In this document: piece after piece, positions 35,566 to 57,038 of the stretch | How the letters are laid out: each line of letters begins with the position of its first letter | How positions within the stretch are numbered: the stretch's first letter is position 1 | Assembly: GCA_000004985.1 (NCBI GenBank) | Contig: GG738889.1 | Direction: 5' to 3' (one strand) | DNA: 64,000 bases | Source: Naegleria gruberi | Taxonomy: Eukaryota | Notes under the pieces: model-generated | Told to the model about the DNA's origin: nothing | What the model saw: the letters and a program-made list of their open reading frames with translations, nothing else | Database searches by the model: none | Program-made: the position numbers and the translations under genes

Positions 35566-37122
35566 ATGTCTTCAAATCTTCCATGTGCAGAGATTATTTT
35601 GGAGGCTTGCAAAAAATTGAGTCACATTCTTGGTTCAAGCTTTGGTCCACTTGCTTTTCATAAATTAATTATTAATTATCATCACCATGTATTTTCGGAT
35701 GTAATTTATTCAAATGATGGAGCAACAATTATGGATTCACTTCCGATTGTTAATCCTATCGGAAGAATTTTATGTGATTTATCAAAATCTCAGGAGGAAC
35801 AAGCTGGAGATGGTACAACTGGTGTTGTTTTATTGTGTTGTGAATTGGTTAGAAATTGCTTGGAGGAATTACATTTAAAACAATTAATACCTTTGGATGT
35901 GATTTGCAGTAATTTATCTACTTTGAAAAATGTATGCAAAGAGACTTTTCTGACTATAATGCAGAGAGACAGGGTCATGATGCAACAATTTGTTACAAAT
36001 AATTGTGAAATTATTAATTTTATATGTAAAAATTCATTACAATCTAAGGAATTGAGATTTCATATTGAACATTTTAAAAGCATTTTAACTGAAGGATTTT
36101 CTAATGGAAATTCCATTCCTAAACATACTAAATTTCATATTATTGAGGGTGGCCAATTGAATGACAGTTTTGGATTTAACGGAATTTTTATGAATATTTC
36201 ACAATCTTCATTCTCAAAGAGATACGCCTATTCTAGTAGTTATTTGGATAAATTATCCAAGTGTAGATCAATATTATTGCTAAAGAGGCAAAATTTAGAA
36301 ATGAATCAAAAAGAAAAGCTATTTTGGAGAAGTTTATTTGAATTGGGAACCAGTAGTAGTGGAATAATAATTTTGATGGAGGGAGCATTCCCTTTTCATG
36401 ATATATTTTATAGTTCAGATTCTAATGTGCTGATATTTGATAAATTAAGCTCGAAACATTTGCAAAATATATCACATTCTCTAAATCTACCTTCAATTAT
36501 CCCAGTTGGATCAACCACCACAGTCGAGAATGAGGATCTCTATATTTTCGAGTCTTCTCCTAATTTTTCAATTTTTCAAAACGAGATTTTCATAACTATT
36601 CCTAATGTTTGTGACTTTTTTAATATTATTATTCGAGGGCCTTCCAATACTATTAATGAGGAATCCAAGAGGTCAATTAAGGATGCCTTCTATGTAATTA
36701 AAGGGTTTATCAATGAAAACAACTTTTTCAGTGCTTCCAATACATCAGAATTATGTGGAGGAGGATGTCACATTGAAATGAGTATATGGAGAGATGTCAG
36801 CAATTCCTCAGTACTGTCCAAAGGAATTTCAACAATATTTGCTGATAGCTTCTTATCAATAGTGAGATTTTTATTGCACTCGAGTGGATTCAAACATGAT
36901 TCAGAAATGATAATTTTACGATTGGCAAGTGAATATTCTAAAAATCCAAACTCTTTCTTTGGTATTGATCTTACCAATCAAGATTCACAAACTCCAATAA
37001 TTTCCAACATTATAGAAGCTCATATCATTGAAAATCTCAGAGTCAAGAAAATAATGATCGAGTTGGCCATTGAAACAGCCATAAATCTACTCAGAATCAA
37101 ATCAATTGATTTTACCAATTAA
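35566..37122 (+). CDS. divergent group-II chaperonin-like protein (BBS-type: MKKS/BBS10/BBS12-like), 518 aa
   Basis: Chaperonin ATP-binding signature GDGTTGVVLL preceded by the equatorial-domain pattern (DVIYSNDGATIMDSLPIVNPIGRIL.DLSKSQEEQAGDGTT). The rest is highly diverged with low-complexity inserts, as in BBS chaperonin-like proteins rather than canonical CCT subunits. Confidence 0.5.
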   Translation: MSSNLPCAEIILEACKKLSHILGSSFGPLAFHKLIINYHHHVFSDVIYSNDGATIMDSLPIVNPIGRILCDLSKSQEEQAGDGTTGVVLLCCELVRNCLEELHLKQLIPLDVICSNLSTLKNVCKETFLTIMQRDRVMMQQFVTNNCEIINFICKNSLQSKELRFHIEHFKSILTEGFSNGNSIPKHTKFHIIEGGQLNDSFGFNGIFMNISQSSFSKRYAYSSSYLDKLSKCRSILLLKRQNLEMNQKEKLFWRSLFELGTSSSGIIILMEGAFPFHDIFYSSDSNVLIFDKLSSKHLQNISHSLNLPSIIPVGSTTTVENEDLYIFESSPNFSIFQNEIFITIPNVCDFFNIIIRGPSNTINEESKRSIKDAFYVIKGFINENNFFSASNTSELCGGGCHIEMSIWRDVSNSSVLSKGISTIFADSFLSIVRFLLHSSGFKHDSEMIILRLASEYSKNPNSFFGIDLTNQDSQTPIISNIIEAHIIENLRVKKIMIELAIETAINLLRIKSIDFTN

Positions 37123-37163
37123 ACAACAAGCTTTAAAATTGCTTCTAACAAAGGCAAGAAGTG

Positions 37164-37175
37164 TTTGGCGCCAAA
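37164..37175. promoter_or_regulatory. perfect palindrome TTTGGCGCCAAA, 69 bp upstream of the TRF-like gene ATG (37244)
   Basis: Exact 12-bp palindrome; lies between the BBS-chaperonin stop (37122) and the next start. Confidence 0.4.
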
Positions 37176-37243
37176 AATTTAAAAAAAATAACCAAACAAC
37201 AATCTCACACAAAGGCTTGCATTCGCTGTTGGTGAAGTTGAAA

Positions 37244-38557
37244 ATGTCGTCATCGAAGCAACAAGAGACTAACAATACGGAACAAACACAACAACAAATG
37301 GAAACACAACAACAATATGATAATCAAGAGGAAGTTGAAATAGATGAGAGATCTTTGAAATGTAATGCTTTTATCATTGAATATATACTTTATAAAAAAG
37401 TTGATTATCTTGTAGAGGATTTGTTAAGAGAACTCCCATATGATCGCGATAATGTTAATCTTAGAACTAGATTAATTATAAGTCAATTGAATGGATTGTG
37501 GGAAGAAGTTGAACAGGAAGATAAAGTTGATGGTGATAGAATCGGATTTATTGTTAGTTCTGTGACTGCTTTACTAGGATTACTTGATGAGAGAAAACAA
37601 ACTTTTGCAGAATTTTTCCAAGAAGCAACCTTCTCCGCAGATGCTTATTCTAAAAAGATCAAGAAATGGTTGACCTCTTTCATTAATGCTGACACATATG
37701 AACTCAAATATCAATCACTTGAGGCTCTTGTCAAATATTTCAATATACTAGGAAATTATCTTGGTGAACCTAAGCTTTATTCATTGCTGAATCAACCAAA
37801 ACAAATCCAGGAGGAAACACAATCTAATGATGCTGTAATGAATGAACCACAAATACCACAAATCACTGTTGATTCACTTCCAGACGAGCCATGTACATAT
37901 TTAGGGCTTAAAAACACAGGAATTTCAACATCAGAAGAAACTACAATCTTTATAACAGAAAGACTTTTTAACGCTAGGAAACCATCAAAACCAATACCTC
38001 AGGTACCTGAGAAAGCACCAAGACAAGAAGAGCTTACTCAGCAACCTACTCAGCAAGTTGTTGCAGCCTCTACTCAATCTAATCAAGATGAACAAGCCAA
38101 GAAGAGAAAACCTACTGCTAATGCCAATAATTTAAAAAAGAAGAGGTTAATGGATAGTCAAAAGGATGCTAAAAGAGTTGTAATTATTAGGGAATTTGCT
38201 TCTTCTGAAGATGATGAAGATATTCCTATTACTCGTGCTTCTAAGCTACAAAGACCAAGATCTAAATCAGATACAAATGGTAAATCCAAGAAGAAATCTG
38301 TTTTTGAGGATTCTTCCAGTAGTGAAGAAGAAACTGAACGAGTTCTTTTCAAGCCACGTAAAAAATCAAAAGATACCAAGCAAAAGAAAGTATTTTGGAC
38401 TGATGATGAAGTTAACGCCTTACTTAAAGGTTTCAAGATGTATGGAACTCAGTGGGCAAGAATTTTAGCAGAATTCAAAAAGACTTTCCATCCCAACAGA
38501 GATAGTCTTAGTCTTCGTGACAAATACAGAAATATGGAAAAGTATGGTCAAATTTAA
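37244..38557 (+). CDS. TRF-like protein with single C-terminal Myb/SANT telobox-type domain
   Basis: ATG 37244 (MSSSKQQE...). C-terminus KKVFWTDDEVNALLKGFKMYGTQWARILAEFKKTFHPNRDSLSLRDKYRNMEK fits the telomere-repeat-binding Myb/telobox (W..EE...L..GV..YG.G.W..I.........R....L.DK.RN). Basic NLS-like tracts (KKRKPTANANNLKKKRL); N-terminal helical region could be TRFH-like. Confidence 0.55.
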   Translation: MSSSKQQETNNTEQTQQQMETQQQYDNQEEVEIDERSLKCNAFIIEYILYKKVDYLVEDLLRELPYDRDNVNLRTRLIISQLNGLWEEVEQEDKVDGDRIGFIVSSVTALLGLLDERKQTFAEFFQEATFSADAYSKKIKKWLTSFINADTYELKYQSLEALVKYFNILGNYLGEPKLYSLLNQPKQIQEETQSNDAVMNEPQIPQITVDSLPDEPCTYLGLKNTGISTSEETTIFITERLFNARKPSKPIPQVPEKAPRQEELTQQPTQQVVAASTQSNQDEQAKKRKPTANANNLKKKRLMDSQKDAKRVVIIREFASSEDDEDIPITRASKLQRPRSKSDTNGKSKKKSVFEDSSSSEEETERVLFKPRKKSKDTKQKKVFWTDDEVNALLKGFKMYGTQWARILAEFKKTFHPNRDSLSLRDKYRNMEKYGQI

Positions 38558-38578
38558 GTTGTACATTTAATAAATAAT

Positions 38579-41028
38579 TTATTCTTCGTCATCGATAACA
38601 ATAGCATCTTCATCCTCTTCCTCTACTTTTTTCTTTGATCTTGATGAGCTTGCTTTCTTTGGTTTTTCTTCAGTTTTCTTTGGTCTTCCTCTTCTCTTTG
38701 GTTGTTCTTCTTCCTCTTCGTCTTCATCTACATCTAATGCTTTGAACTTGGCTTTCTTTGAAGCTGCTGCCTTTCCTCTTGTTTTCTTTGGCTTTTCTTC
38801 CTCTTCATCACTTTCGTTCTTCTTTCTTTTAGCTCCTCTCTTTTTTGGTTTTTCTTCCTCTTCATCACTGGCAACCTTCTTTTTTCTTCCTCTTGTCGTC
38901 TTTTTTGGTTTCTCTTCCGCAGCTTCTTCGTCGCTTACAACCTTCTTTTTTCTTCCTCTGGTTGTTTTCTTTGGTATCTCTTCTTCCTCTTCTTCACTTT
39001 CATTTTTCTTCTTTCTGCTTGTAGGTTTCTTCTTTTCGACAATTTCCTCTTCCTCAAGAATATCCTCTTCATCAGATTTGTCCTCAGATTTTGAAGCCTT
39101 AGAGAGCCTGTCAGACATTATTTTATCCTTATCCAAGTTCTCTTTGCTTTCTTCTCTATACTTTTGTAAATATTTCTCCAAATCAGATTCAGAAATGTCT
39201 TGATTGGCAAATTGTTTGAGATCAGACCACAATTTCTTTTGTTTTGACTTGATATCACTAGCAACAAAGTCATCAATGGCATGAGCTTCTTCCTTATCTA
39301 CAAAGTCAACAACAGAGTTTTGGAATTCAAATTCATTCAATACTAATAAACCATTAATATTAGTTTTTTTGGTGGATGTCTCTTTCAGGAAATGTGAAAC
39401 TAAATCTTCAATCTTGATACCATCAGTAAGAGCATCACTTGCAGCATCTGCAAATAGCTCACTATTATTATCATTATTCAAAATTGCATTAAGTAATTGT
39501 TCTTTGGATTTCTTTTTCTTACTCTTCTTTTTTCCCTTTTCCTCTTCAACTTCTTCATCCTCTTCCATGTTGTCCTCTTCCTTTGATGCCTTTTTCCTTG
39601 ATAATAAAAGCAAATCTGATGGGTTGGCAATCTTTCCAACAAAGTTTTGACCAAATCTTTGAGGATTGACAGTGGCATAACCACCACTGTAATCTACTCT
39701 GAGTCTGATAATTGGTAGATCTAATCCAGGATATTTCTTATAGTAGGCTTTGAGTTCTTTAATTGCTTCTTCATCCCCTTCAAAATTACTTAGTTTGTCT
39801 TCCTTAGCTTGTTTAATTAATTGATTTACGTGTTCTTTAAGGAAATCAGCAATTTCGTCTGGATTGTTCTTAATATGTTTCAAATCTTGTTCAAAATCAG
39901 AGAGAGAAATTGAATCAAATACGTAAGGTCTTACAGTTTTCAATGTAATTGGAATAACTCTGAATGAATCTTTGTAAATTTCCAAGATGGCAACCTTTTT
40001 TGGCTTAGCTTCTTGGTGTGTGTATGTAGTAGAAATAGAACTACCTGGTTGCATTACTTCAAATCCACCAGTAGCACTTTTTGTTGGAGTGATTTGTTGT
40101 TCATGTTCATGACCCCACACTACTAGATCAAAAAATCCTTTCAGCATACTTTCACTAATATTTCCTTTCTTTGTGTGATGTTGATTTCTATTTTGGTGAA
40201 TGGTCATCAAATTAAACCATTCATTTGAACCTTGACTATCTTCACCACTTGGTCTAAAGAATGTCACTTTCTGATTTTTAAATGTTTGATATAAACGTTC
40301 GTCTCTTATATAACCAAGTCCATAAAGTGCAAGTTTAGTTTCTCCTTTTTGTACTAAAATAGGTTTAACTTGAATATTATCCACAGTTTCACACTTTCCG
40401 AAATAATTTATCAAATTACATTGTGCAAGAACATCCAAAACACTGAGACTATTCTCTCCAGACCAAGCATCATGATTACCTAATGTTTTAATCATTGTCA
40501 TATAAATTATGAAAACTCATAAAATACAAACTTACCACTGATTGCAAAAATTGGAAGAGAAATATTAACATTAGGATCTTCATAATTTACAGTTCCTTCA
40601 GGATTTGATTTGAAATTTACAGATTGATCACTTAAAATTTGCAAAGGAACAGGCTTGTCACCAAAAACATATTTTCTCAGAATTGATATTGTCTTGTGAA
40701 GAGTATCACGAGAAGGCTTGTTATCATGGAAAAGATCACCTCCCTGTAACACAAAATCTACATTATATTTGTGACCATATTGAATAATCTCCTCAAAGAT
40801 GATAAAAGAGTCATCCTTTCTAACTGTATCACGTTCCAAGTATCCAACATGATTATCCGTTGTTATTAAAACTCTGAGAACATCCTTTTCATCAACATCT
40901 TGCTCATTAACACCACTTGATCCTTCTTCAACAGGTTTAATTCCTCCCTCTTCATCATCAACATAACTACGCTGTGATGAGAGACGGAAATTAGAGGCTT
41001 GTGAAGCTCCACTCTGTGTCCTAGGCAT
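38579..41028 (-). CDS. MRE11: double-strand-break repair nuclease MRE11, 2 exons, with basic/acidic repeat tail containing AT-hook motifs
   Basis: complement(join(38579..40479,40536..41028)). LRVLITTDNHVGYLERD..R..DSF..FEEI...........VDFVLQGGDLFHDNKPSR......I..LR..VFGDKPV..QILSDQ....NYEDPN.NISLPIFAIS|GNHDAWSG...LDVLA...L.NYFG; phosphoesterase motifs III-V follow (GHEHE). The 56-nt intron (G|GTAAGT...CATTAG|) splits the GNHD motif. Confidence 0.9.
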
Positions 41029-41332
41029 ATTGTTCAATATTTATATTATTATTTACAAATTAACCACACACACCCAGAGAGTTTTCTTCTTATTGGTGAT
41101 GAGTGAGGGTCGAATAGAAAATTCGCAATTTTTTTACAGTTTTAAAATCAAGGCTTTGCTGGAAAATTACAATTTGAAATCGATAGAGATGAACAATAAT
41201 CTAAAGAAGATATAATATTTAAAAAGTGTGTACTAATAACATTGTTATTTAATATTAATTGAGGCTCTATTCTATTTACTTTGAGAAAAAAAATTTAAAT
41301 GTTTATTAATCGAATGGTACTTTGAGAAAAAA

Positions 41333-42646
41333 ATGGAAAATCTTACACCACTACTTTTTGATTTTTCCGAAGATGATCCATATTCCGAAGATGATCCAGA
41401 AGAATATTGCACAACAATGGAAAGTAGTGATGTAATGGATGATATCATTTTCAGGCCAATAGTGAATCATCTTCCAAGAGAAATAATACTTGAAATTTTG
41501 AGCTTTTTCCGATTGGAAAATATTAATCCAGTTAATAATGAAAGTGAATTAATCAAGATGTGTTTTGGCAGATTTTCAAATGATAGTAGTATTGAGTGTT
41601 TGTTTAGATGGATTGATGTAGATGGTGTAGCCTGGAGGAAAATGGACAAGTATCCACAACAGATAATTCATCTATTACAATTAAATAACAGAGGTGCAGG
41701 AATTGAATTGAAACCAGTAATGTTTCGAATGATGGAAGAGAATATAGTGATGAAGGATTTCTTCTTTGATGCTGGAAGGTTTGATTTTTCGTTGGTGGAA
41801 TCATTGGAAATGAATTGCCAACAAATGGCGCTTGATCTCATTCAGAGAGCTCTACAAACTTTTACTTTTGTGAAAAGCATTGAAATTGAGATGAGTTATT
41901 CAGAAGCTTCATTGATTGAAATTGTACCCTTCTTATCAAATATGTCAAATTTGAAATTATTTGCTTTTCATTGTGATGATTTTGTTACATTCGATTTGTT
42001 AGAATTATCCAAAGTGACTCCACAATTGGAAGAGTTAAGAATTTCATCCTCTTCTTCCATACTCGCATGTCACCAAGCTGTTTCCAATTGGAAACATTTA
42101 AAACGACTTGAATGGGCATTTGTTTCGTATGATAATTTATTTTCTGGTTTTGATGAATCTGATAACTTTAATGAGGATGCCAGACTATTCTATGAAGTTC
42201 TCAACAAGTCATTAGTTGAGCATCTTAGTTTAAAATTGGAGAAATTGACAGATTTCTTTGAAATAACATCACCCTTATTGAAGGATCTGTCATTGAAGAA
42301 TTGCACTCTTTCACCTATGAATTATTCTAACATTCTCAAGATTGAAAAATTGGAAAGATTGACATTGATCAACTCTCATGACGAAATTATCAAACAAGCT
42401 CCTTATCACCTCAAAAATCTCAAATATTTATGCATTAGTGAGTGTGATTCAAAATCTCTTGAGTACATTAACAAAATAGCTTCACTTCAAACGATTGACT
42501 TTGTTTCTCCAAAATTCATGCCTAATCAACTCTCTATCTTTAATGGACATCCTTCCCTTGACAAAATTATAATTAAAGGAATCACATTTAAAAGAGAATT
42601 TTTCAGAGATCTAGAAAATATTGAAATCAAATTACAACAGCATTAA
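41333..42646 (+). CDS. F-box / leucine-rich-repeat protein, 437 aa
   Basis: F-box motif LPREIILEILSFFRLENI near the N-terminus, followed by LRR-like segments (LEELRIS, LKRLEWAF, LKDLSLKNCTLSP, LERLTLINS, LKYLCISECD). Confidence 0.55.
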   Translation: MENLTPLLFDFSEDDPYSEDDPEEYCTTMESSDVMDDIIFRPIVNHLPREIILEILSFFRLENINPVNNESELIKMCFGRFSNDSSIECLFRWIDVDGVAWRKMDKYPQQIIHLLQLNNRGAGIELKPVMFRMMEENIVMKDFFFDAGRFDFSLVESLEMNCQQMALDLIQRALQTFTFVKSIEIEMSYSEASLIEIVPFLSNMSNLKLFAFHCDDFVTFDLLELSKVTPQLEELRISSSSSILACHQAVSNWKHLKRLEWAFVSYDNLFSGFDESDNFNEDARLFYEVLNKSLVEHLSLKLEKLTDFFEITSPLLKDLSLKNCTLSPMNYSNILKIEKLERLTLINSHDEIIKQAPYHLKNLKYLCISECDSKSLEYINKIASLQTIDFVSPKFMPNQLSIFNGHPSLDKIIIKGITFKREFFRDLENIEIKLQQH

Positions 42647-43484
42647 TTTGTGATAGATATTTTCTTCTGTATTCTTTTTACGTATTTTACGTAAAAGATA
42701 GAGAACAATTTCAGATTCTTAGATTTTTGCAACTGAATAGTTTGTAATAGACTGATTTGATTACATTTGTTGAGCGAATGATGGAAAAGAAGGCCAGTTT
42801 AGTCCATTTTACTTCCACTTTAAGGAATTTTGATGATTATCGGATATGTATGTTTTCATATTTGAGCTCGAAATGATGATTACAATTTCATATGTGAAAC
42901 TGTCTTTTCAAATCAGAGGAGCCAAAATCATCTCAATTTGTAATAATTCTGTGCTAAATTGGAACGAAAACTAGTTTCATAGCATGACTCAAGATCTTTA
43001 TTTTCCAATCAATTAACACAACTGATTTACCAACATTGAATCATAACGAGAGTAGAATTTTTAGATGTTTTTTTGCACAAAGTGAATAATTATATTATTA
43101 AGCCATCAAGGATTATACATTTACTTACTTGGTTGCTGTCACTTGTTGTAAACAGCGTGAAGCGGTGTGTAAGTGAAAGAGCAGGTGTTACTTTTAAAAG
43201 AACTGGTTTTTAAAAATGGTCTCGATTTTCCAATTAGTGTTGTGTAAATTAATCTCAGACCTACATGAAATTGATCTTGGATTGCTGAGATAATGATTCG
43301 TTTTGTTTGAAATAGTTTTGATTGTGAAAAAGTGTCGCAAATATAGGTCAAACGAATACCAAAGCACCATTTATCCTGCCCCTTCGAATGTTTTTACTTT
43401 CGTTTATTGGATTGATGAAGTTAAATTCTGCAACTAAACATTAGCTGTCTGAATAGCGAAAAACAAATAGAAAAAACAAGATAA

Positions 43485-43982
43485 ATGAAAAATTGGACCA
43501 AAACAACCAGCAGAACAGTTTCCTTCATAGACGAAACTCAAAAGGTGAAGTCTAAAGTGGAGGGAAAGAATGTTGAACCAAAACTTAAAAAAAGATTGAG
43601 AAAAGACTTACAAAACAACAAATTGCTGAAGAATTACTTTGTGTTCCATAATGAAGATCCACAGGGTGATGTGTTTATTTACAAAGTTATCCAAGATCAA
43701 AAAGACGAAACTATTAGAAACCAAGATAAAGTAATCACACGCCACAAGATACCAGTTAAAGCAATGGACATAAATAATACTTCATCAACCAATCCACCTT
43801 TTCATCCAGGCAATCATTCAGATATTCTAAATATTGCAAGTTTCCTCTCCAGTATTCCATTACAATCAGTTGACCAGCTTGATAGAACAACCATTGCATC
43901 CTTGTTTGGGCTAGATGCTACTAATCATGAAACTACACATCTATCTTATTGTAATCAAGACAATGAATCCACTTTTTTATGA
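43485..43982 (+). CDS. hypothetical protein, 165 aa
   Basis: ORF only (MKNWTKTTSRTVSFIDETQKVK...); coding-like composition; no homology recognised. Confidence 0.25.
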   Translation: MKNWTKTTSRTVSFIDETQKVKSKVEGKNVEPKLKKRLRKDLQNNKLLKNYFVFHNEDPQGDVFIYKVIQDQKDETIRNQDKVITRHKIPVKAMDINNTSSTNPPFHPGNHSDILNIASFLSSIPLQSVDQLDRTTIASLFGLDATNHETTHLSYCNQDNESTFL

Positions 43983-44172
43983 TTCTCAACAGTACTGTAA
44001 AAAAGCTTTCTCATTTGCAAGCATTCTTGAAACACAAATAAACCCTGACAATTATACTCCTGAAATGGTGGTCTTTGTTAACACTGGATTGACAATTATT
44101 AAGGTTTCATATTTTCAAGACATGGTTTTTATTATTACAATTCCTCTAGATCCACTTCATGCTTCCAAAGAA

Positions 44173-47100
44173 TTAGAATCTTGGTGGAGGTGGAGGAACA
44201 CTACCACCACCAAATGAAGGTGGAGGAGGAACACCTCCTGACATTGGTGAGGAAGGTGGAGGTGGAGGAACACTGCTTGCTCCACCAAATGAAGGTGGAG
44301 GTGGAGGCATAGAACCACCTGATGGTGGAGGTGGAGGTGGAGTATTCATCATATTTCCTCCCATTGTTGGGGATGAAGAATATGAGCTAGGACTGCTACT
44401 GTATGTATCCATAGATGGAGGTTGTGAAGTTGGAGTATGTTGTGAAGAACCACCAAATACTGATCCACGACTTCTGAAATTAGAAAATGATTGTTCATTG
44501 GTTGTGACAGTGGCAACAATTTTGACCTTTGTGAAATCTTCATCGGCTGGTGGTGCGTAATCATCTGGAGTATTGTCTGCAAGTGGATAGTAATTACGTA
44601 AGCAATTGAATACACGATTGTTAATGGAACGAACAATGTGTGCATTATTGAGGAATGGTTTCAATTTTTCAAAACCTTCCTTTGAAATATTGGAAATATT
44701 CAAAACGTGATCAGAAAAGTTGAAAGCATCAAATCTGAGTTGTTGTTGGAAGAGATAGACAATTGTAGAACCTCCCCAGAAGAAACCATCTCCAAAGACT
44801 TCAAAATCAGATGGTTCATTGGCAACTTCAGGTGGAATACAGAAAACAAATTGCAAAACACCCCACAAACGATAGAATTCCTTTGAAGAGTCCAACTTTT
44901 GCAAACGATCTGGTGGTGAAGTACCTTTCCATGATTCTCTAACGTTAGCAAGGAAACCACTCATTCTTTCCAAGAATTGTTTGAAGAGTGACAATAGTTC
45001 ACGTGGAGGTTGATACATTCTCATAGCTCTAGAAGCTTGTTCAGTAAGCTTCTTGGACAATTCTGGAGCGTGAATACTTTGTTGAACTTGTGGATCATTG
45101 ACGAATGAAGCAATAGTTGTGGCAAGTGGTGTTTGTTCAACATCCTTTCTAATATAATAATCAGAAAGTTTTTGCAACAAGAGTAAATCTTCTGACATCA
45201 TGTGTTCACTTGTTAAACCATAACGAGATGATTTACGTGCAAGACTATTCTTTTGGTGTTGTTGCTGTTGTTCTTGGAATTCAGCTTCATTTTCAATTTC
45301 TTCTTGTAACTTTTCAACTCTCTTTTGTTTGGCAGTCTTAGTGAGCGGCTTAATACCCAAGAATGGAGCAGAAGCAATATAGGTTGAAATATTTTGAGGC
45401 ATCATACTAGAATCGAGTAAGAGAAGGAAACAGATACAATTACCAATACTTCTAAAGGCGTGGAATACACCTCCCTTCAAATCATCATAATCAAGGAAAT
45501 CTCTGAATTGAGCAATGAAATATGAATAGACACCTATTAATTTGTAAGCAGCAGGTTGGAGTGTAATCTTTGGTGCAATGGCTTCCATCATAGCACCAAT
45601 GTATGGAGACATTTGATTGTACAACTTATCTTCAATATCAGTAATAACAGTTTCAATAATGAGGGCAAGAGATTCTTGACCAACCAATCTGATCAAAGTT
45701 TCAATGTGTGGACGACCGAAGAATTCCTTATATTGATCTAAAATTGGTGTGAATGCTTCAGAGAAACCAGCTGTTACAAATTGATGGAGAGCACGAGGCT
45801 TGTAACTTTCTCTCTTGTAGTCAATTTCACTGTATGTATATTTACTACGTACGAAACGATGGGTGACAGTGTTGAAACAGAAGTTAGGGAAGAAGTCCAT
45901 AATCAATTCTTCAATAATGTGTCTGGCAATACGACTTTCGAATGAAACCATACTGGTACAATCGTTGACTTCAGCAAAGACAGATTCGAAAGAGTCCAAA
46001 GCAAGGTGTTTAGATAAAAGTTGGTGAGTGATTTTAACACTTTCCAACATGATTTCCAATTCAACGATACCATTCAATTCTTGGGATTCGAATTTCTTGA
46101 TGAGAGCCAAAATGTTTTCTCTGATGTTTACGTTCATACGTTGGGTAATAATATAGTTCAAGTCAACATATCGACCAAGAATGTTAATGTGTTTCTGTAA
46201 GAGCAAAACGTCAAACTTGCTCTTGGTAAAGTTAAAGTTTGTCTTTACGAATTGATCCTTTTCTAATGGAACACGCAACTTGTTGTCAAGTAAAATACCA
46301 AGAGCAACAGATCTGTAGTGTTTGTAGATAGATTCACTCAATTTAAAGATCAATTGATCAAAGACCAAGTTAACTTCAGCTTCAATTTCATCATATAAGA
46401 ATCTACGCTTCAAAACAAACAATGCTCTATAAGCGGCATCATTGTAAATGTTAATTGGATAAATGATAGATTCCATCAAGGCACTGTTAGTTCTCTTCAA
46501 AATTTCTTCAGTAAGAATCCATGGCAATGACATTTCAATAGGGAACTGAATCTTCTTGGAAATTTCCAAATAGAATTCACGATACCACAAATCAGCCAAA
46601 TCAGCAGCACGTCTCAATGTGGTAGAGTAGGCCAACAAGTAATTCCAAGTGTAGGTCTTATTGTAGAATTCCTTGAAAGATTCGACATGGGAATCATTAA
46701 AGTCTTTCTTGGAGAAAATACCTGATTTTTGCATACCTGGACTTCTTTCACTGTACAAAGTGGAAATGATTGAACGAATCATGTGAAGTTGTGTGAAAGA
46801 TGGACCAACAATTCTCTTTGGATATTCCAAGGCAGCTTCACCCTTCTTCTTTGTTGGTTTGGTAATGTCTTGAGGTGGTTCATTGAGCCAGTCACCAGCC
46901 AAGTTTCTCAATTCCAAAACAGTTGGGAAGATTGGTCTTTGCTTGTTCTTTGTGTGATAGAGCATATCTTGTAAGTCAACTTGGATGAACTGTTGCAATT
47001 GGTAGTGAATTTCTGAACGAATCAAAGGAGCCATCAATGCATTTTGTTGTAACATGATATTTTCGAGACCCTTGATCATTGAAATGGCATCAACTAGAGC

Positions 47101-48728
47101 TGATCTTTCATCCTTGTCATAGTTGAAACGAACCACACGTTCATATTCAAGTATATCAACCTTTTGACTAGCATCAACAGCTTCATAACGTTGCTTTAAA
47201 GTTCTTGCTTGTTCATCATCAATTGGATGTGAGTATTTCCAAGCACATTGTTCCAAGATAGCGGTTGTCCAAGAGGCAATTAATTTCATACCTTGTTCAG
47301 TCATATCTTTAGCTTTTTCACGCATTGGTTGAGGAATAATTGTTAACAATTCTTGACTTGTTGGAGAATCCTTGATCAATTTCTTCATACGATTGATATG
47401 AAGTTTATAATTTTTAGTGAAATTTTGGAAATCAAATCTCATCTTTGGAATTTGATTAACAAGAAGGAATTGTTTTTGTAATTGTTCTTCTTCCTTTTGA
47501 GAGAGAGACCAATCCTTTTCTTGTAAATTTGGACAATTCTTTAAAACTGTCTTGATAGAGAATGTCATATCACCATATAATGGAATATTTGGATATGATT
47601 TGAAAATCTTGTTAAATCTACCCATACTGTTGGATCCAACTTTTCTCAAATAGTTATTCTTTGAAGTATCCTTGTTATCAATGAGATACATTCCAAATAC
47701 CAAAACACGAATTAATGTGTGTTTTTGATCACAGAACAAATATTGATGATCTTCAAAATTTTCAGAGCATCTTTCCATCAATAGAATGATAATATCTTCA
47801 TATCCAGCATTCTTTATCAGAGAATCTTTGAGACCAGAAATGATAGTATTATTGTTTGATAAGAAATTATAAAGAAGACCATATTCTTCACTCTTTGTAT
47901 CTAAGAAATTCAATTGTTCTTGTGTTAAACCTTCCTTGTCCATGAATTGAGCAGCACGTCTAACAGTTGACATGTCGTTGTTAATGGCTGCTTTCATGTT
48001 TTTGAGAGCATCCAACTTGAGGATTGTATCTAAAACACTAATCATATAATCAAACATGGTTTCACTAGGAATTTCCTTTCTCTTTTCATTAGCAGCCATT
48101 TCAATCATAATCTTTGTGAGTGTTTTGACGGTATTTGTGTGAAAAGCCATCAAATCACGAATCTTTTTAATTTCTGGTTCCAAAACATCGAAAAACTTTC
48201 TATATAATTCAGCCTTGTTTTCAGAATCTGCTTGAATTTGAGGAAGAGCACGTGAAATTGAACGATAAGTGTACAAGGTTTGAATAAAGTATTCACCAGT
48301 TTCTATTATTTCTTGCTATTATTATTGTAAGTGTTATTGTTAGTGATAGTGATGTTATTATTATAGTTGCGATATTTGATGGTTTTGTTGTTGTTATTCG
48401 AAATGGTGGAATCGAATAATATTTGTCATCAACAATTTGTGATTATTATATAATAAATAGTAAAATAAAGATCATAATTGTGAATGTAATATTAAATAGA
48501 AGCAGTGTGAGATTAGTCTAATCATGAGAACAAACCTACCAAAATTTGAATATGTTCAGCTTCTTTAGCAAAACGAGTAGTATAACCACAACGATCAGCA
48601 AAATTGAGTGGACTTGTAAAAGCACCAGTTTCGTAACTAATATAATCTGATGCTGCTTCAATGGTTGGCTGATTAGACTCAACCATGTAAGAGTTGAGTA
48701 CTTTCAATCGTTGCTTGGTATTGTCCAT
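44173..48728 (-). CDS. CYFIP: CYFIP/PIR121/Sra-1 (SCAR/WAVE complex subunit) with proline-rich C-terminal extension, 2 exons
   Basis: complement(join(44173..48315,48540..48728)). Exon 1 MDNTKQRL...PLNFADRCGYTTRFAKEAEHIQIL (human [24 protein letters not shown]); 224-nt intron with TTG|GTAGGT donor and AATAG| acceptor; exon 2 QEIIETGEYFIQTLYTYRSISRALPQ (human [26 protein letters not shown]) ...VLEPE..K......IQFPIEMS.PWILT...YDEIEAEVNL.FDQ..YKL. Continuous match along about 1240 aa, then about 140 extra residues ending (PPPPPPSGGSMPPPPPSFGG...VPPPPPRF). Confidence 0.9.
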
Positions 48729-51330: not shown

Positions 51331-51605
51331 ATCAGGGAATTTTTCAGAGTCGAATTTTGATTCAGCTATTGGATCAAAACTCTCTATCAAATCAATTTGA
51401 TCCTCGAAAAATTTAATTCGGATCACAACTCAACATCAAATTGTTTATTTTTCAAAATTTGATATTGAGTTTTCACAAACTGACCATCAAAAATTTTATA
51501 CGGGACGCAGTATTATTAAGATTTAAAAAAAGGCTTTTTGGAATGACCAACAACGCTTTGAATAACAACAATACCAACACACTATTTTTAGCGAACACAC
51601 GGAAG

Positions 51606-54600
51606 ATGTGGTCGTCTTCAATGGTATATTGTGTTCTTATTTTAATGTTGATAATATACTTTATTGAGGCTACGGAATCAACAATAACGTGCAATAACAT
51701 TGATAGCAACTTGAGTAATGTTTGCTCAGGAAATGGAATTTGTATTTCCAATAATGTTTGTTCGTGTTATGTTGGTTTTGATGGAGCTGCTTGCGATACA
51801 CCAAGAACTATTCAGAATTTATTTGCAGGATACTCTGTCTTATCAAGAAATTCTTCAATATCATCCAACAAAATAATTAATTTATTTGGAAATGTTGCAA
51901 ACACTCCCTCATCGTCTCAACTCTATACTAATTTCAATATAACATCAGGTATTACACATGATGGAGATGTCTATGCTTCTCATTACATTAACCAAGCAGA
52001 ACAATACTTTAAACAATTAGACAACCTTCCTTGCGATTTTACTCTGAGATCATCTCCCCGTATTGGTAGAATTGAGGTTCGTTATGGAGGTGTTGGTTGT
52101 TTTGAGGCTGGTTGGACTGGTCCATCAACAGTGGTTATTAAGGGCTCTCAACGAGTAGTTTTCAAGATTAAGGGTAATTTCATTACCAATGAAATAACCT
52201 TTGCTCTCTCCAAATGTGCCTCAGAGAATAATATTTACTGGCTTGTGAATGGTAATACAAAGATAACTAACAATTTTAAGGGAATTCTGAAAACTGCTGG
52301 AAAGGTCGATATCACTAATGCTAACATTGATGGAACATTGTTCATTAATAATACCTCTGCGACTTTTACAAATGTAACCTTTGGACCTGTCTCCACATTT
52401 GATCCATATCAGTCATTAACTAACTCTGAGTGCTCTCTTTCTTCTTGTTATGGAATCCTTTCCAATGAAACATCTGTTTGTGCTGGTGTAGGTTTATGTT
52501 ACGATGACAATGCCTGTTTTTGTCCATTGGGATATGGACAAGATTGTTCATTACCTTTGTGTTATGGAGTGCTTCAAAACTCTGCTAGCGTATGTTCTGG
52601 CAACGGTAATTGTACAGGACCAGATACATGTGAATGCAAAGAAGGTCATCTGGGATTGAATTGTTCAATTTCTCTCCCACCTTGCTATGGAATTGGAAAT
52701 GATACCAGTCGCATTTGCTCAGGTGTTGGAAATTGTACATCGAAAGGAGTGTGCAGTTGCCCTGATGGATATGGATTTGATTGCTCAGTACCCATTTGTA
52801 ATGGAGTGCTTGCCTACAACAAAGCATGCAGTTCTCATGGTACATGTATTGCCCCTAACAGTTGCTCATGCTCATCTCATTATCATGGAGACAATTGTGA
52901 GCTTACTACATGTTTCGATATTCCATCAGATAATTCCACGACTTGTTCTGGAAATGGTGACTGTATAGATTACAATCGCTGTAGATGTTTTGATGGGTAT
53001 CAAGGAAGTGATTGTGGTCAGTTGACAACTACAATAATCTACGAAAATATCACAATCTATGAGAATGAAACCATATGGATTGAATATAACACCACAGAAT
53101 ATATCAATGAAACTATATATATTCGTCAAAATCAAACAGATGTAGTAATTGATGATGGTGCAATTATATTTACACCAAACCCTACAGGATCTAATCCAAT
53201 TACTTTCAACACAACTAGAGTCAATGTCACTATTATTACCTACTATAATGCAACCTCAAATTCTACTACCACAGTGACAACAACTACAACAACTGTTGTC
53301 GTGTATACCACAATAGTGTGTAGTAAATCCCTTAATTGTTCCAATCATGGAGAATGTAATTCCAATGGAGCTTGTACTTGCTATTCAAACTTTGATACTG
53401 GTTTTTGGTCAGGTTCTAGTTGTAACACTTGTAGAGATGGATTCCATGGTAATAATTGTGCTACAAAGGTTGTTGGACCTGCTTACATATCCAATGATTT
53501 CACAGGAGTTACGTTTTATCTTTATGCACCAAACTCTTACACAAGTAATCAAATAAGCTGCAACAAACTATTACATCCTGATGATATCAGTAGTAACATG
53601 TTTGGAGATGCAAGCAAAATACAATGTAGCTATGTAGATAGGGCTAGCTACTTGTTTATGATTACTTTTGGGTCTAATGATTATGTATTTAATGCTGGTG
53701 CGTCTAACTTACGTATTAACACTCATGTATTTGATCAGAGTGCAGGTTCTGCAGATTATCTTTCAATGATTATCAATCTACCACAAGGATTTTCTGGTCC
53801 AGTAGCCAAGATTTCAATGGCGTTTACTTCAACATACAGCTCTTGCGAAGAAATTGTAATTGATGGTTCAGGAAGTACTGCACCATATGGAGGTAGTCTT
53901 ACATATTACTGGACTTTGCTTAATGCAGCTACAATGCAGGTTTTATCGACAAACTTTGCAAATCAACCAAAAATTACTCTTCCAGCTTCATTAAGTTCTG
54001 GAAGTTACCAAGTATCTCTGAAAATTCAAGGTGAATTCTTACATCTTTCCAGTGCAGTAGTACACACAGGAACATTCACTAAAGCTCCAAAACCTGTTCC
54101 AGTAATAACTTTTTACAAAGGAAATACCCAGCTAAGGTATACTAATCAATTCCCATATACAATCAAAAAAGTAATCGAATCTCCTTGTAGAGACTCAAAT
54201 AATACAATAGTACGTTGGGAACAACTAAGCGGACCATCTATTGAGTACTCAGTGGACTCCTATAACAATCTATACATCCCAAAACTCAAAACATTTGGAA
54301 ACAATAACTATACATTTAAGGTATCCGCTTATTATACTGATGCAAATTATCAAGGTTCTAGTGATTTTGTTTTAATTACACAATCACCTCCTTTGAGTTT
54401 AGAACTTTATCAAGCTGAAGCAAAGACTGATCACTCGACTGTTGAGGTTATTTATTCAGACCCAGAATCTGCTTTAATCTCAAAAAGTGAAACATGGACT
54501 TGGTCTAGCTTGGATTATCAAGGACCAAGATTATATACATTTTTAACTACCCAATCCAATCAAAAATCTTCTAGTCTTTACTTGACATCCAATTATTTTG

Positions 54601-57038
54601 ATCCTGTGCCAGCAATGGTCACAATTCAATTAAGAATTGAAAAATCTGATGGTAGATTTGTACAAAAGTCTTCAATTGTTCGATTTGGTGCTGTTGCTCC
54701 TTCTTTCAACGTAATCAGTCAACAACCAAACACAGCTTACTTAAAACCAGGCTCTCCAATTACAATCCATTCATTGGTTTCTTCCTCTTCAACATCTGTG
54801 TTTGTTTCTTGGAGATTAAACAATGAAATGATTTCAACTACTAAGACAATAATTCAATCAAACTGGGGAAGACAAATTAATCAGGTTATGTTTGACACCT
54901 CAAATCTTGTGGATGGTACAACAAACACAATCACAGCAGTTGTTTCAGATTCAAGCACACAAGGAACAAGTACAACCACAATAGTTGTGCAAGTGGCTAA
55001 ACGTCCATCCCTTTGTGCATGTGATATTACTCCATCAGTTGGTATTGCTATGGAAACACAGTTTTCTTTCGGTTGTACTCAATGCAAAACAACCGACAAC
55101 AATGTTGACTATAATTATGGATTTATAGATGACAGGTCTGGAATGAAGGTGTCTCTGTATAAACTCGGAGAAGTATTTTCATCTACTTTACCAGCTCCAT
55201 TGAATGGAAATACCCTTACTTGTTATATTGACATAATTGATACTGTGACCGGAGGATCGGTTAACATGACAAAGAAAATAACAGTCAACAAACAATCAAC
55301 AACAAGCTTGTCTGAAATTCAAACCTTGGTAAAGTCTTGGACTGATACCGTAAATCAATACTTGAAAGACGGACAAATCAGTAAGAGTTTCTACATGACA
55401 GCAACTTTCCTAAGAACCGATACAGTGCTAGTTAGAGAAGCAATTAAGGTTCTTGCTTCAACTTCAAGAAGAGATATTGTTTGCTCTCATGGTGTTGAAG
55501 TATCTGGAGTTTGTAAATGTGCAGACGGTTATGTTGGTACTAACTGTGAGGTTCCAATATTTGGTTACAGTCAAAGCCAGTCTGTAAAATTAACAGCCTT
55601 TACAAACATTATTAAGCTTTCTAATTCATCTTATGACATCATCAATGATGAGTATTTTACTCTTTTAGTTTTCTCAATAGATTCTGTTTTGGAAAATTAT
55701 GAGTATCTAGAGAAGAAGACTGTTGGACAAGCCCTTGACACTCTGAACCTATACCTTACAAGTGTAGTTGCTATTGATGACTTTAACTTGCCAAACGGAG
55801 TAGAAATTCTTTTGAAAAACATTATTCAAAACACTTATATTTACGTCGTTGAAAAGCAAATGTTCACAGACCAAACAGAAAACTCAAAAAAGTTGCTTAT
55901 TCTCCTCACTTTAACAACAACTCTCATGTCAAGAACCATTTCTTATGGAAGTTCTTCTAGCGTATTCAAAACTCAATATTTTTCATATACAATGAATAAG
56001 TATTCAATTTACGATTTCCCTCCAATTGTGTCAGATAACTCAAGAATATGCCAAATTATTGTTGAAGGGCTGTTTTTCTCAAATGCAAAATCAACAAAAC
56101 TTTACAGACAACCATTTGGTTTTGTTATGACTGTGTCAGATGACGTTTTCCAATTAGGACCAACTATTGGATTGCAAAAATCAACTAAAGAAAACATTCA
56201 AGCAAGTTCCTCACTGGTTTCTCCTATTATGTCCTTATCATTTAATGGGTTGACTGCTCCTGTTGATTTTAATGGTATCATCTATATTCTTCCAATCAAC
56301 AAGACAACTACCTTTAAGATATTTGATCAAGGAACTTTTGATTATGTTGAATCTGTAACTGAATATACATGTAACTCTTTTAAGGATTCACCAGAAGCAA
56401 TTACCAAATGTAAGCTTGTTGAAATGAATGCAACCCACACAAAATGTAGTTGTTCTACCCTGGGTAATGTCTTTGTAATGGAAACCACAACAATTACAAA
56501 ATATTCCCTTACAATCTTTGTGATTATGGGAGCTTCTATTATTGTAATAGGTAGTGCTATAGTCACAATATTCTCATTCTGTTGCTGTTGTTGCCGTTGT
56601 GTTGTGATAGGAAGAAGAAGATTCTCTGAACGTCATAGCGAGGCAAAGATAGTTCGTGTTAAGCATGATGTTAGAGCAATGTTTTTGGAAAAACCAGGTA
56701 CAAATGACTTTGTTACAACAGAAAGAGTTCAACTAAGGAATGATAACAATAAGGTTACAAGAACTATTATAACTACAGACCCTCTCTTAGTTACAAATAA
56801 CACAAAGACAGTTGTTATGCAAAGCCCAAGAATGTACACAAAGGAAACAACCTATGTTACCAAAACTCATCATCACCAAGGAGGACAAACAGTTGTTTTT
56901 GATACACCTAGACCTGAAGTTGTCATAGCATCTCGCCCAAGGGTTCTTGAGGAAATTGTAACCAATCGACCAGTTGTTGTGAGAAGAAATCAAGTTCAAC
57001 CAATGGATGTTGAACTTGTTGAGAGAAGAAGATATTAA
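51606..57038 (+). CDS. large type-I membrane protein with tandem EGF-like repeats, REJ/PKD-like region, single TM and cytoplasmic tail
   Basis: 1865-codon ORF from 51441. Likely start MWSSSMVYCVLILMLIIYFIEA (signal peptide) at 51606. At least 8 Cys-spaced EGF-like units (CSGNGICISNNVCSCYVGFDGAACD; CAGVGLCYDDNACFCPLGYGQDC; CSGNGNCTGPDTCECKEGHLGLNC ...). Many N-x-S/T sites; TM LTIFVIMGASIIVIGSAIVTIFSF followed by CCCCCRC. Confidence 0.7.
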   Translation: MWSSSMVYCVLILMLIIYFIEATESTITCNNIDSNLSNVCSGNGICISNNVCSCYVGFDGAACDTPRTIQNLFAGYSVLSRNSSISSNKIINLFGNVANTPSSSQLYTNFNITSGITHDGDVYASHYINQAEQYFKQLDNLPCDFTLRSSPRIGRIEVRYGGVGCFEAGWTGPSTVVIKGSQRVVFKIKGNFITNEITFALSKCASENNIYWLVNGNTKITNNFKGILKTAGKVDITNANIDGTLFINNTSATFTNVTFGPVSTFDPYQSLTNSECSLSSCYGILSNETSVCAGVGLCYDDNACFCPLGYGQDCSLPLCYGVLQNSASVCSGNGNCTGPDTCECKEGHLGLNCSISLPPCYGIGNDTSRICSGVGNCTSKGVCSCPDGYGFDCSVPICNGVLAYNKACSSHGTCIAPNSCSCSSHYHGDNCELTTCFDIPSDNSTTCSGNGDCIDYNRCRCFDGYQGSDCGQLTTTIIYENITIYENETIWIEYNTTEYINETIYIRQNQTDVVIDDGAIIFTPNPTGSNPITFNTTRVNVTIITYYNATSNSTTTVTTTTTTVVVYTTIVCSKSLNCSNHGECNSNGACTCYSNFDTGFWSGSSCNTCRDGFHGNNCATKVVGPAYISNDFTGVTFYLYAPNSYTSNQISCNKLLHPDDISSNMFGDASKIQCSYVDRASYLFMITFGSNDYVFNAGASNLRINTHVFDQSAGSADYLSMIINLPQGFSGPVAKISMAFTSTYSSCEEIVIDGSGSTAPYGGSLTYYWTLLNAATMQVLSTNFANQPKITLPASLSSGSYQVSLKIQGEFLHLSSAVVHTGTFTKAPKPVPVITFYKGNTQLRYTNQFPYTIKKVIESPCRDSNNTIVRWEQLSGPSIEYSVDSYNNLYIPKLKTFGNNNYTFKVSAYYTDANYQGSSDFVLITQSPPLSLELYQAEAKTDHSTVEVIYSDPESALISKSETWTWSSLDYQGPRLYTFLTTQSNQKSSSLYLTSNYFDPVPAMVTIQLRIEKSDGRFVQKSSIVRFGAVAPSFNVISQQPNTAYLKPGSPITIHSLVSSSSTSVFVSWRLNNEMISTTKTIIQSNWGRQINQVMFDTSNLVDGTTNTITAVVSDSSTQGTSTTTIVVQVAKRPSLCACDITPSVGIAMETQFSFGCTQCKTTDNNVDYNYGFIDDRSGMKVSLYKLGEVFSSTLPAPLNGNTLTCYIDIIDTVTGGSVNMTKKITVNKQSTTSLSEIQTLVKSWTDTVNQYLKDGQISKSFYMTATFLRTDTVLVREAIKVLASTSRRDIVCSHGVEVSGVCKCADGYVGTNCEVPIFGYSQSQSVKLTAFTNIIKLSNSSYDIINDEYFTLLVFSIDSVLENYEYLEKKTVGQALDTLNLYLTSVVAIDDFNLPNGVEILLKNIIQNTYIYVVEKQMFTDQTENSKKLLILLTLTTTLMSRTISYGSSSSVFKTQYFSYTMNKYSIYDFPPIVSDNSRICQIIVEGLFFSNAKSTKLYRQPFGFVMTVSDDVFQLGPTIGLQKSTKENIQASSSLVSPIMSLSFNGLTAPVDFNGIIYILPINKTTTFKIFDQGTFDYVESVTEYTCNSFKDSPEAITKCKLVEMNATHTKCSCSTLGNVFVMETTTITKYSLTIFVIMGASIIVIGSAIVTIFSFCCCCCRCVVIGRRRFSERHSEAKIVRVKHDVRAMFLEKPGTNDFVTTERVQLRNDNNKVTRTIITTDPLLVTNNTKTVVMQSPRMYTKETTYVTKTHHHQGGQTVVFDTPRPEVVIASRPRVLEEIVTNRPVVVRRNQVQPMDVELVERRRY

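Follow-up and report, generated by a model that had tools for sequence, protein, structure and literature searches.

The CYFIP gene of Naegleria gruberi encodes a protein that runs on, past the last motif shared by the whole family, into a proline-rich C-terminal tail, and this tail is real in-frame coding sequence of the gene. We consider it somewhat better than an even bet that the tail forms a translated, disordered proline-rich domain that would offer FH1-like docking for profilin-actin and/or for SH3/EVH1 partners beside the Rac1 D site of the SCAR/WAVE complex. It is a familiar kind of proline-rich region in an undescribed place: tail-bearing sequences are already public, and full-text searches of papers that can be read without subscription brought up no mention of a proline-rich tail on PIR121/CYFIP/Sra1. 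The gene lies on the minus strand of the window, by which we mean the whole analysed stretch of 64,000 nucleotides of contig GG738889.1.

The ORF at the centre of this analysis (minus strand, 44173..48276) reads 1367 aa from an internal TTG and is a CYFIP/Sra1/PIR121 homologue. The Pfam family FragX_IP (PF05994) covers it at full length with 816 bits (E=4e-245, cutoff 23.3), and human CYFIP1 from the solved WAVE complex (3p8c_A) matches it with E=5e-187. In the final aligned block, ORF residues 1095-1234 pair with residues 1090-1230 of the 1253 of human CYFIP1, and the ORF then runs on to residue 1367. Both alignments are collinear up to the usual C-terminus, in agreement with what had been read from the letters alone. 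The spliced gene comprises two exons (48728..48540 and 48315..44173) and encodes 1443 aa. Exon 1 (48540..48728, minus strand, 63 aa, MDNTKQ...HIQIL) was located by tblastn with 89% identity to the N. lovaniensis and 70% to the Willaertia N-terminus, and an in-frame stop stands immediately 5' of its ATG. The sole intron (48316..48539, minus strand, 224 nt, GTAGGT...ATAG, GC 0.25) occupies the interval that the two tblastn segments leave open; it is bounded by GT and AG and contains stops in every frame. With exon 1 included, the CYRIA/CYRIB-type Rac1-binding domain (DUF1394; Pfam CYRIA-B_Rac1-bd) scores 32.1 bits and passes its cutoff of 23.1, compared with 22.8 bits when exon 1 is left out. 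Exon 2 holds the conserved CYFIP core (44506..48315, minus strand), as delimited by FragX_IP, 3p8c_A and an alignment of 41 homologues. The core extends to PPADEDFTKVKIVATV (KVKIVATV), the last motif conserved across CYFIPs, which ends at ORF residue 1257 and window position 44506. Judged by these matches, the gene product clearly belongs to the CYFIP family and, by homology, would have a Rac-binding role within the pentameric SCAR/WAVE complex, subunits of which have been reported in N. gruberi (PMC7594500). The closest relatives are N. lovaniensis (87% identity), two further Naegleria-type sequences and Willaertia magna, and the gene order CYFIP-Mre11-Myb is conserved. In one of the Naegleria-type loci (L003), the called gene (P0002) includes an extra segment where the window has its intron.

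Beyond PPADEDFTKVKIVATV, the frame stays open for 110 further codons (44176-44505), up to a TAA stop (44173..44175, minus strand) two residues past the last poly-proline run. A likely polyadenylation signal, AATAAA, follows 39 nt past the stop (44128..44133, minus strand). The sequence-only reading had put the extension at about 140 aa; counted from the last family-wide motif it amounts to about 110 aa. The 142 codons of that earlier count begin near ORF residue 1229, where the last predicted helix ends in an AF2 model covering ORF residues 868-1367, and even animal CYFIPs have about 25-30 residues past this point. The rest of that description, i.e. a tail in the same ORF with no intervening stop, a G/S-rich tract followed by five poly-proline runs with G/S linkers, and a CCA/CCT-rich stretch of locally higher GC, was found to hold. 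The tail consists of 28% Pro, 24% Ser and 13% Gly; its proline codons are exclusively CCA (16) and CCT (15), and its GC content is 0.44-0.51 compared with ~0.33 nearby and 30% in the window. AF2 pLDDT values stay at 32-55 over the whole tail, as expected for disorder. The proximal half (44341..44505, minus strand, 55 aa) is S/T/G-rich and, from its composition, pLDDT and alignments of Naegleria tails, predicted to be disordered; within Naegleria, the blocks SF.NFRSRGSVF and YSSSP are kept in it. The distal half (44176..44340, minus strand) is the poly-proline module, PPPPPP-SGGSM-PPPPP-SFGGASSV-PPPPP-SSPMSGGV-PPPP-SFGGGSV-PPPPP-RF, with runs of six (44323-44340), five (44293-44307), five (44254-44268), four (44218-44229) and five prolines (44182-44196, all on the minus strand). 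The module is delimited by these run coordinates, by their enrichment and by a weak match to Drf_FH1. Over its six reading frames, the 64 kb window has only six runs of at least four prolines, and five of them fall here, in one frame and within 160 nt, where ~0.03 would be expected, which confirms the poly-proline tail. Tandem Repeats Finder detects only a 6-nt CCACCT periodicity inside each proline run; hence, the five units are not the product of a recent tandem duplication at the DNA level. Animal CYFIP1/CYFIP2 (3P8C/7USC) share with the window protein the collinear full-length homology and both the FragX_IP and CYRIA-B Rac1-binding domains, but they end 5-10 residues past the conserved PP motif, and none of the examined animal tails has a run of three or more prolines, whereas the window CYFIP carries 110 extra residues with five such runs.

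That the tail might be an artefact, i.e. an intron or 3' UTR read through, a frameshift in the assembly or a neighbouring gene fused to this one, with the true protein ending at the canonical C-terminus, is highly improbable. We compared the locus with those of N. lovaniensis (L001), two Naegleria-type loci from SRA and ENA assemblies (L002, L003) and Willaertia magna (L004). In these four independent assemblies of relatives the tail is present in the same frame and with the same end point. The Willaertia version is shorter and ends with IPPPPQL; L001, L002 and L003 end with GGxVPPPPP[RK]GY-stop and the window with GSVPPPPPRF-stop, such that the stop follows 1-3 residues past the last proline run in all five heterolobosean loci. 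The tail contains no splice-donor-like site, and the final 720 nt of coding sequence contain no AATAAA; the signal appears only past the stop, at a distance of 39-69 nt in four of the five loci (window, L001, L003 and L004). Furthermore, the neighbouring downstream ORF (43485-43982) lies on the opposite strand and is convergent with the CYFIP gene, which makes a gene-fusion artefact unlikely. Complete transcriptome ORFs of Pharyngomonas, Cavostelium, Rigifila, Fabomonas and Stygiella end in tails, and such tails are thus part of the mature mRNAs of relatives.

The substitution pattern speaks against an artefact as well. At the nucleotide level, the tail alignments contain many gaps whose length is not a multiple of three; we read these as misalignment of low-complexity sequence and instead aligned the codons of the two closest loci, L001 and L003, with their protein sequences as a guide. 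Over 85 tail codons, this pair differs by 19 synonymous and 20 non-synonymous changes, giving a dN/dS of 0.31, while the 120 core codons directly before the tail yield 0.007. Selection on the tail is thus relaxed yet clearly purifying, and much weaker than on the core. Altogether, the earlier judgement that the tail is coding rather than intron or UTR is upheld, and the comparison with orthologues that it had proposed reveals tails in the other Naegleria loci, in Willaertia and in transcriptome-derived orthologues. For annotation, this means that gene models of Naegleria CYFIP are right to include the long C-terminus, which should be left in place.

The tail is not special to this genome; the same kind of tail is attached to CYFIP across several supergroups. 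The first list of homologues already included proline-rich tails from other heteroloboseans and from Amoebozoa, and a second search, with an 18-sequence profile, retrieved essentially the same 42 proteins and nothing new. The breadth came from an exhaustive HMMER search with the tail-less core against 1.84 billion cluster representatives, which returned 1659 matches. Counting proline-rich tails of at least 30 aa among the 96 collected CYFIPs that have the C-terminal core, we find them in 32. Tail-bearing Heterolobosea are Naegleria, Willaertia, Acrasis kona and Pharyngomonas kirbyi; the jakobid Stygiella incarcerata and the amoebozoans Balamuthia, Cavostelium, Planoprotostelium and Mastigamoeba have tails too, as do Rigifila ramosa (CRuMs), Fabomonas tropica (an ancyromonad), Paulinella micropora (Rhizaria) and Rhodelphis marinus (Archaeplastida). 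No tail is present on the examined CYFIPs of animals, of a land plant (Daucus PIR), of the chytrid Polychytrium or of Anaeramoeba, nor in the cluster to which Bigelowiella natans belongs or on one protein (P0010) nested within the heterolobosean clade. An AT-rich CYFIP (P0095) was also found to be tail-less. A link between the tail and an amoeboid lifestyle was considered and rejected, Anaeramoeba being tail-less and the flagellates Stygiella and Rhodelphis being tailed.

A neighbour-joining tree built from the cores recovers Heterolobosea and Amoebozoa as clades, as well as a Paulinella/Bigelowiella pair, with Stygiella outside Heterolobosea and with poorly resolved deep branches. Most of the named tail-bearers thus group by taxonomy, which argues against contamination. 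The distribution would fit either an old tail that was lost several times or repeated gains; since low-complexity proline tracts can arise repeatedly, it does not prove common ancestry of all tails. Within Heterolobosea, the number of proline runs varies from one to five. Willaertia and Acrasis have a single short run and, together with the tail-less P0010, indicate that the tail is dispensable in some relatives. The linkers vary by lineage as well, being G/S-rich here and acidic (RDDD) in Amoebozoa and Pharyngomonas, so that the binding partners may differ or the proline content alone may matter.

The tail could be a tolerated, low-complexity disordered extension that binds nothing specifically, e.g. 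a passive spacer, with its frame kept only because frameshifts and stops are mildly harmful or rare. We regard this as unlikely. Besides the changing run number and the loss of the tail in several lineages, it is favoured by an identity between Naegleria species of 55-80% in the tail against 85-99% in the core, and by the fact that the CCACCT hexamer is the longest DNA repeat. On the other hand, a passive extension does not account well for a tail dN/dS below 1, nor for the terminal GGxVPPPPP[RK]G[YF], laid out to the same plan in four Naegleria loci, and CCN-rich tracts are very unlikely to be kept by drift in a genome of 30% GC. Moreover, 24 of the 32 tails, which come from distant supergroups, have their last proline run (of at least three) end no more than three residues before the C-terminus. 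When each tail is rotated circularly, 9.4 out of 32 would be expected, and 24 was reached in none of 200,000 simulations; as the sequences are phylogenetically non-independent, we take this as an indication and not as a formal probability.

The resemblance to a formin FH1 or WAVE-type proline-rich region, suggested from the sequence at the outset, stands, albeit below the family threshold: Pfam Drf_FH1 (PF06346) matches the tail alone with 29.4 bits (E=8e-7) and the whole protein with 23.0 bits, compared with a cutoff of 40. The tail shares with formin FH1 regions a repeated G-[V/M/I]-PPPPP, spaced by short G/S linkers, and its match to them is weak but above chance; it differs in staying under the cutoff, in having only five runs of 4-6 prolines and in having no FH2 domain, none being detected by Pfam in the ORF at E<=0.01. 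Likewise, WH2 has no match in either the tail (E<=1) or the complete ORF (E<=0.01), and no VCA region follows the proline-rich region, the stop coming directly after PPPPPRF. With no FH2, WH2 or VCA behind the repeats, the tail is neither a formin nor a WAVE module. By motif alone, the runs, M/V/T-PPPP(P)(P) with 4-6 prolines, resemble poly-L-proline ligands of profilin. The terminal PPPPPR(F) fits the class II SH3 ligand PxxPx[RK], a motif of low specificity, and a basic residue stands next to the last proline run in about half of the tails. The Ena/VASP EVH1 ligand [FLWY]PPPP does not occur in the tail, the residues before the runs being T, M, V, V and V.

Binding of profilin or of SH3 domains by the tail would be in line with these motifs. 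The G/S-[V/M]-PPPPP repeats may act as formin FH1 regions do, or as the proline-rich regions of WAVE and Abi do, and offer multivalent docking to profilin-actin and possibly to SH3 domains (through the terminal PPPPPR) or EVH1 domains. In the human complex, the Sra1 C-terminus is located near the Rac1 D site, and the complex stays intact when Rac1 is fused to this end via a (GGS)4 linker (PMC9481577). By analogy, the tail would project freely from the Rac-binding, membrane-facing side and leave assembly undisturbed. In tail-bearing organisms, the WAVE complex would thus have three proline-rich arms instead of two, and the third could raise the local concentration of profilin-actin or of other partners at the sites to which the complex is recruited. 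According to the Insall laboratory, the complex has two polyproline domains, on Scar/WAVE and on Abi, at least one of which is needed for protrusion even without the VCA (10.1101/2022.05.14.491902). The CYFIP arm might add to this proline-dependent protrusion activity.

The position of the Sra1 C-terminus next to the D site (PMC9481577) would also suit a mainly regulatory tail, one that binds the complex's own Abi SH3 domain or gates the D site or the membrane, possibly under the control of phosphorylation, and that does not recruit profilin-actin. The fit of the terminal PPPPPR to class II SH3 ligands and the basic residue that about half of the tails carry after their last run point in this direction, and a candidate basophilic-kinase site is present in the proximal half, where FRSRGSVF (44455..44478, minus strand) agrees with an RxRxxS-hydrophobic pattern by motif only. 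FRSRGSVF is kept in several heteroloboseans: it is identical in L002, and its counterparts are IRHRASLF in Willaertia and RKQS in two further proteins (P0005 and P0006). However, the motif is missing from N. lovaniensis and L003, and a single intramolecular latch would need fewer than five FH1-like runs. We judge a mainly regulatory tail to be rather improbable and retain FH1-like docking as the preferred reading.

Among the closest parallels of such a docking arm are the proline-rich regions of SCAR/WAVE and Abi, which belong to the same complex, consist of disordered XPPPP(P) repeats and have profilin, SH3 and EVH1 domains as presumed ligands. The CYFIP tail differs from them in sitting on another subunit and at the extreme C-terminus instead of internally, with no WH2/VCA or SH3 domain after it. 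A move of the proline-rich region from SCAR/WAVE is not supported. In a eukaryote-wide WAVE survey by Kollmar et al., the only listed exceptions to the WHD-basic-polyPro-VCA plan are plants, Ectocarpus and Trichomonas (PMC3298513), which makes it likelier that a third proline-rich domain was added in Naegleria than that one was relocated. Our own search for Naegleria SCAR with a WAVE homology-domain profile, built from human WAVE1, human WAVE2 and Arabidopsis SCAR2, gave 861 matches, the best 120 of which are all animal WAVEs. A further parallel is offered by the poly-proline region of yeast Las17/WASP, for which actin nucleation independent of Arp2/3 is cited in 10.1101/2022.05.14.491902. There too, a proline-rich tract is placed on a scaffold that regulates Arp2/3, and the CYFIP tail could similarly act directly on actin monomers; the Las17 tracts contain arginine-proline motifs, and the likeness is one of description.

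Present models of the WAVE complex, which are based on animal proteins and on Dictyostelium, count two proline-rich domains, those of WAVE and Abi, and it is these domains, not the VCA, that have been argued to be indispensable for protrusions (10.1101/2022.05.14.491902). The CYFIP tail is a widespread and apparently overlooked feature of the complex outside animals, fungi and plants. If an FH1-like CYFIP arm indeed exists in much of eukaryotic diversity, the proline-rich 'valency' of the complex would be variable and evolvable, and the animal WAVE complex may be a reduced form. One may go further and suppose that the ancestral SCAR/WAVE complex had three proline-rich arms, a proposal we find conceivable yet doubtful. 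Discoba, Amoebozoa, CRuMs, ancyromonads, some Rhizaria and Rhodelphis would have kept its CYFIP cap, and animals, fungi and plants would have lost it. Such a cap would link the binding of Rac at the neighbouring D site with a local supply of profilin-actin, and would in this way add to the proline-dependent protrusion activity, independent of VCA and Arp2/3, that was recently reported for the complex. Under this supposition, the lineages without the cap would be the very ones from which all structural and mechanistic knowledge of the complex has come.

Among the 32 Pro-rich tails of the CYFIP comparison set, which come from distant eukaryotic groups, a poly-Pro run lies 0–3 residues before the C-terminus in 24, compared with 9.4 expected from circular rotation of the tails. 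The C-termini compared include those of P0001–P0016, P0043, P0044, P0047, P0074 and P0075, among others, and in about half of the tails a basic residue directly follows the last Pro run. The exceptions include P0017 from Mastigamoeba balamuthi, where the Pro-rich tail is followed by an extra acidic, aromatic segment of 49 residues (FDENGQQFWYDDSGMPYYVDENGQSQYY...).

The linkers between the Pro runs differ in character. They are of G/S type in the tails of Naegleria, Rigifila, Fabomonas and Rhodelphis, whereas those of Amoebozoa and Pharyngomonas are acidic (P0012, P0013, P0014, P0015, P0047 and P0172), as in DAPPPLPRDDDDYG and MPPPPPPSRDD. Judged from these linker sequences, CYFIP tails may come in two flavours, each with its own partners.

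The proximal tail of the window CYFIP carries FRSRGSVF (44455–44478, minus strand), a putative phosphorylation site that fits the AGC-kinase type motif RxRxxS-hydrophobic. The octapeptide is unchanged in the Naegleria-type locus L002, its Willaertia counterpart is IRHRASLF, and two other heteroloboseans have RKQS at this position, while N. lovaniensis and the further Naegleria-type locus L003 have FRQSPA in its place.

The L003 gene shares its intron position with the window CYFIP gene. In the automated call P0002 (L003 2001–6551) the intron after exon 1 is translated through, which adds ~87 spurious residues (LVSFWISCYCC...); the 1516-aa length of P0002 is therefore an annotation artefact.

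The order CYFIP, Mre11, Myb-domain gene is common to the window (37106–43982) and N. lovaniensis (L001 7776–10651). In the window, Mre11 occupies 38579–41037 as two ORFs, likely with an intron between them, and the Myb-domain gene 37106–38557. Two interposed plus-strand ORFs are extra relative to N. lovaniensis: one at 41333–42646, with a weak LRR match below cutoff, and one at 43485–43982, without a Pfam match. On the other side, ~2.7 kb past the CYFIP start codon (48728), lies a very long plus-strand ORF of 1865 aa (51441–57038).
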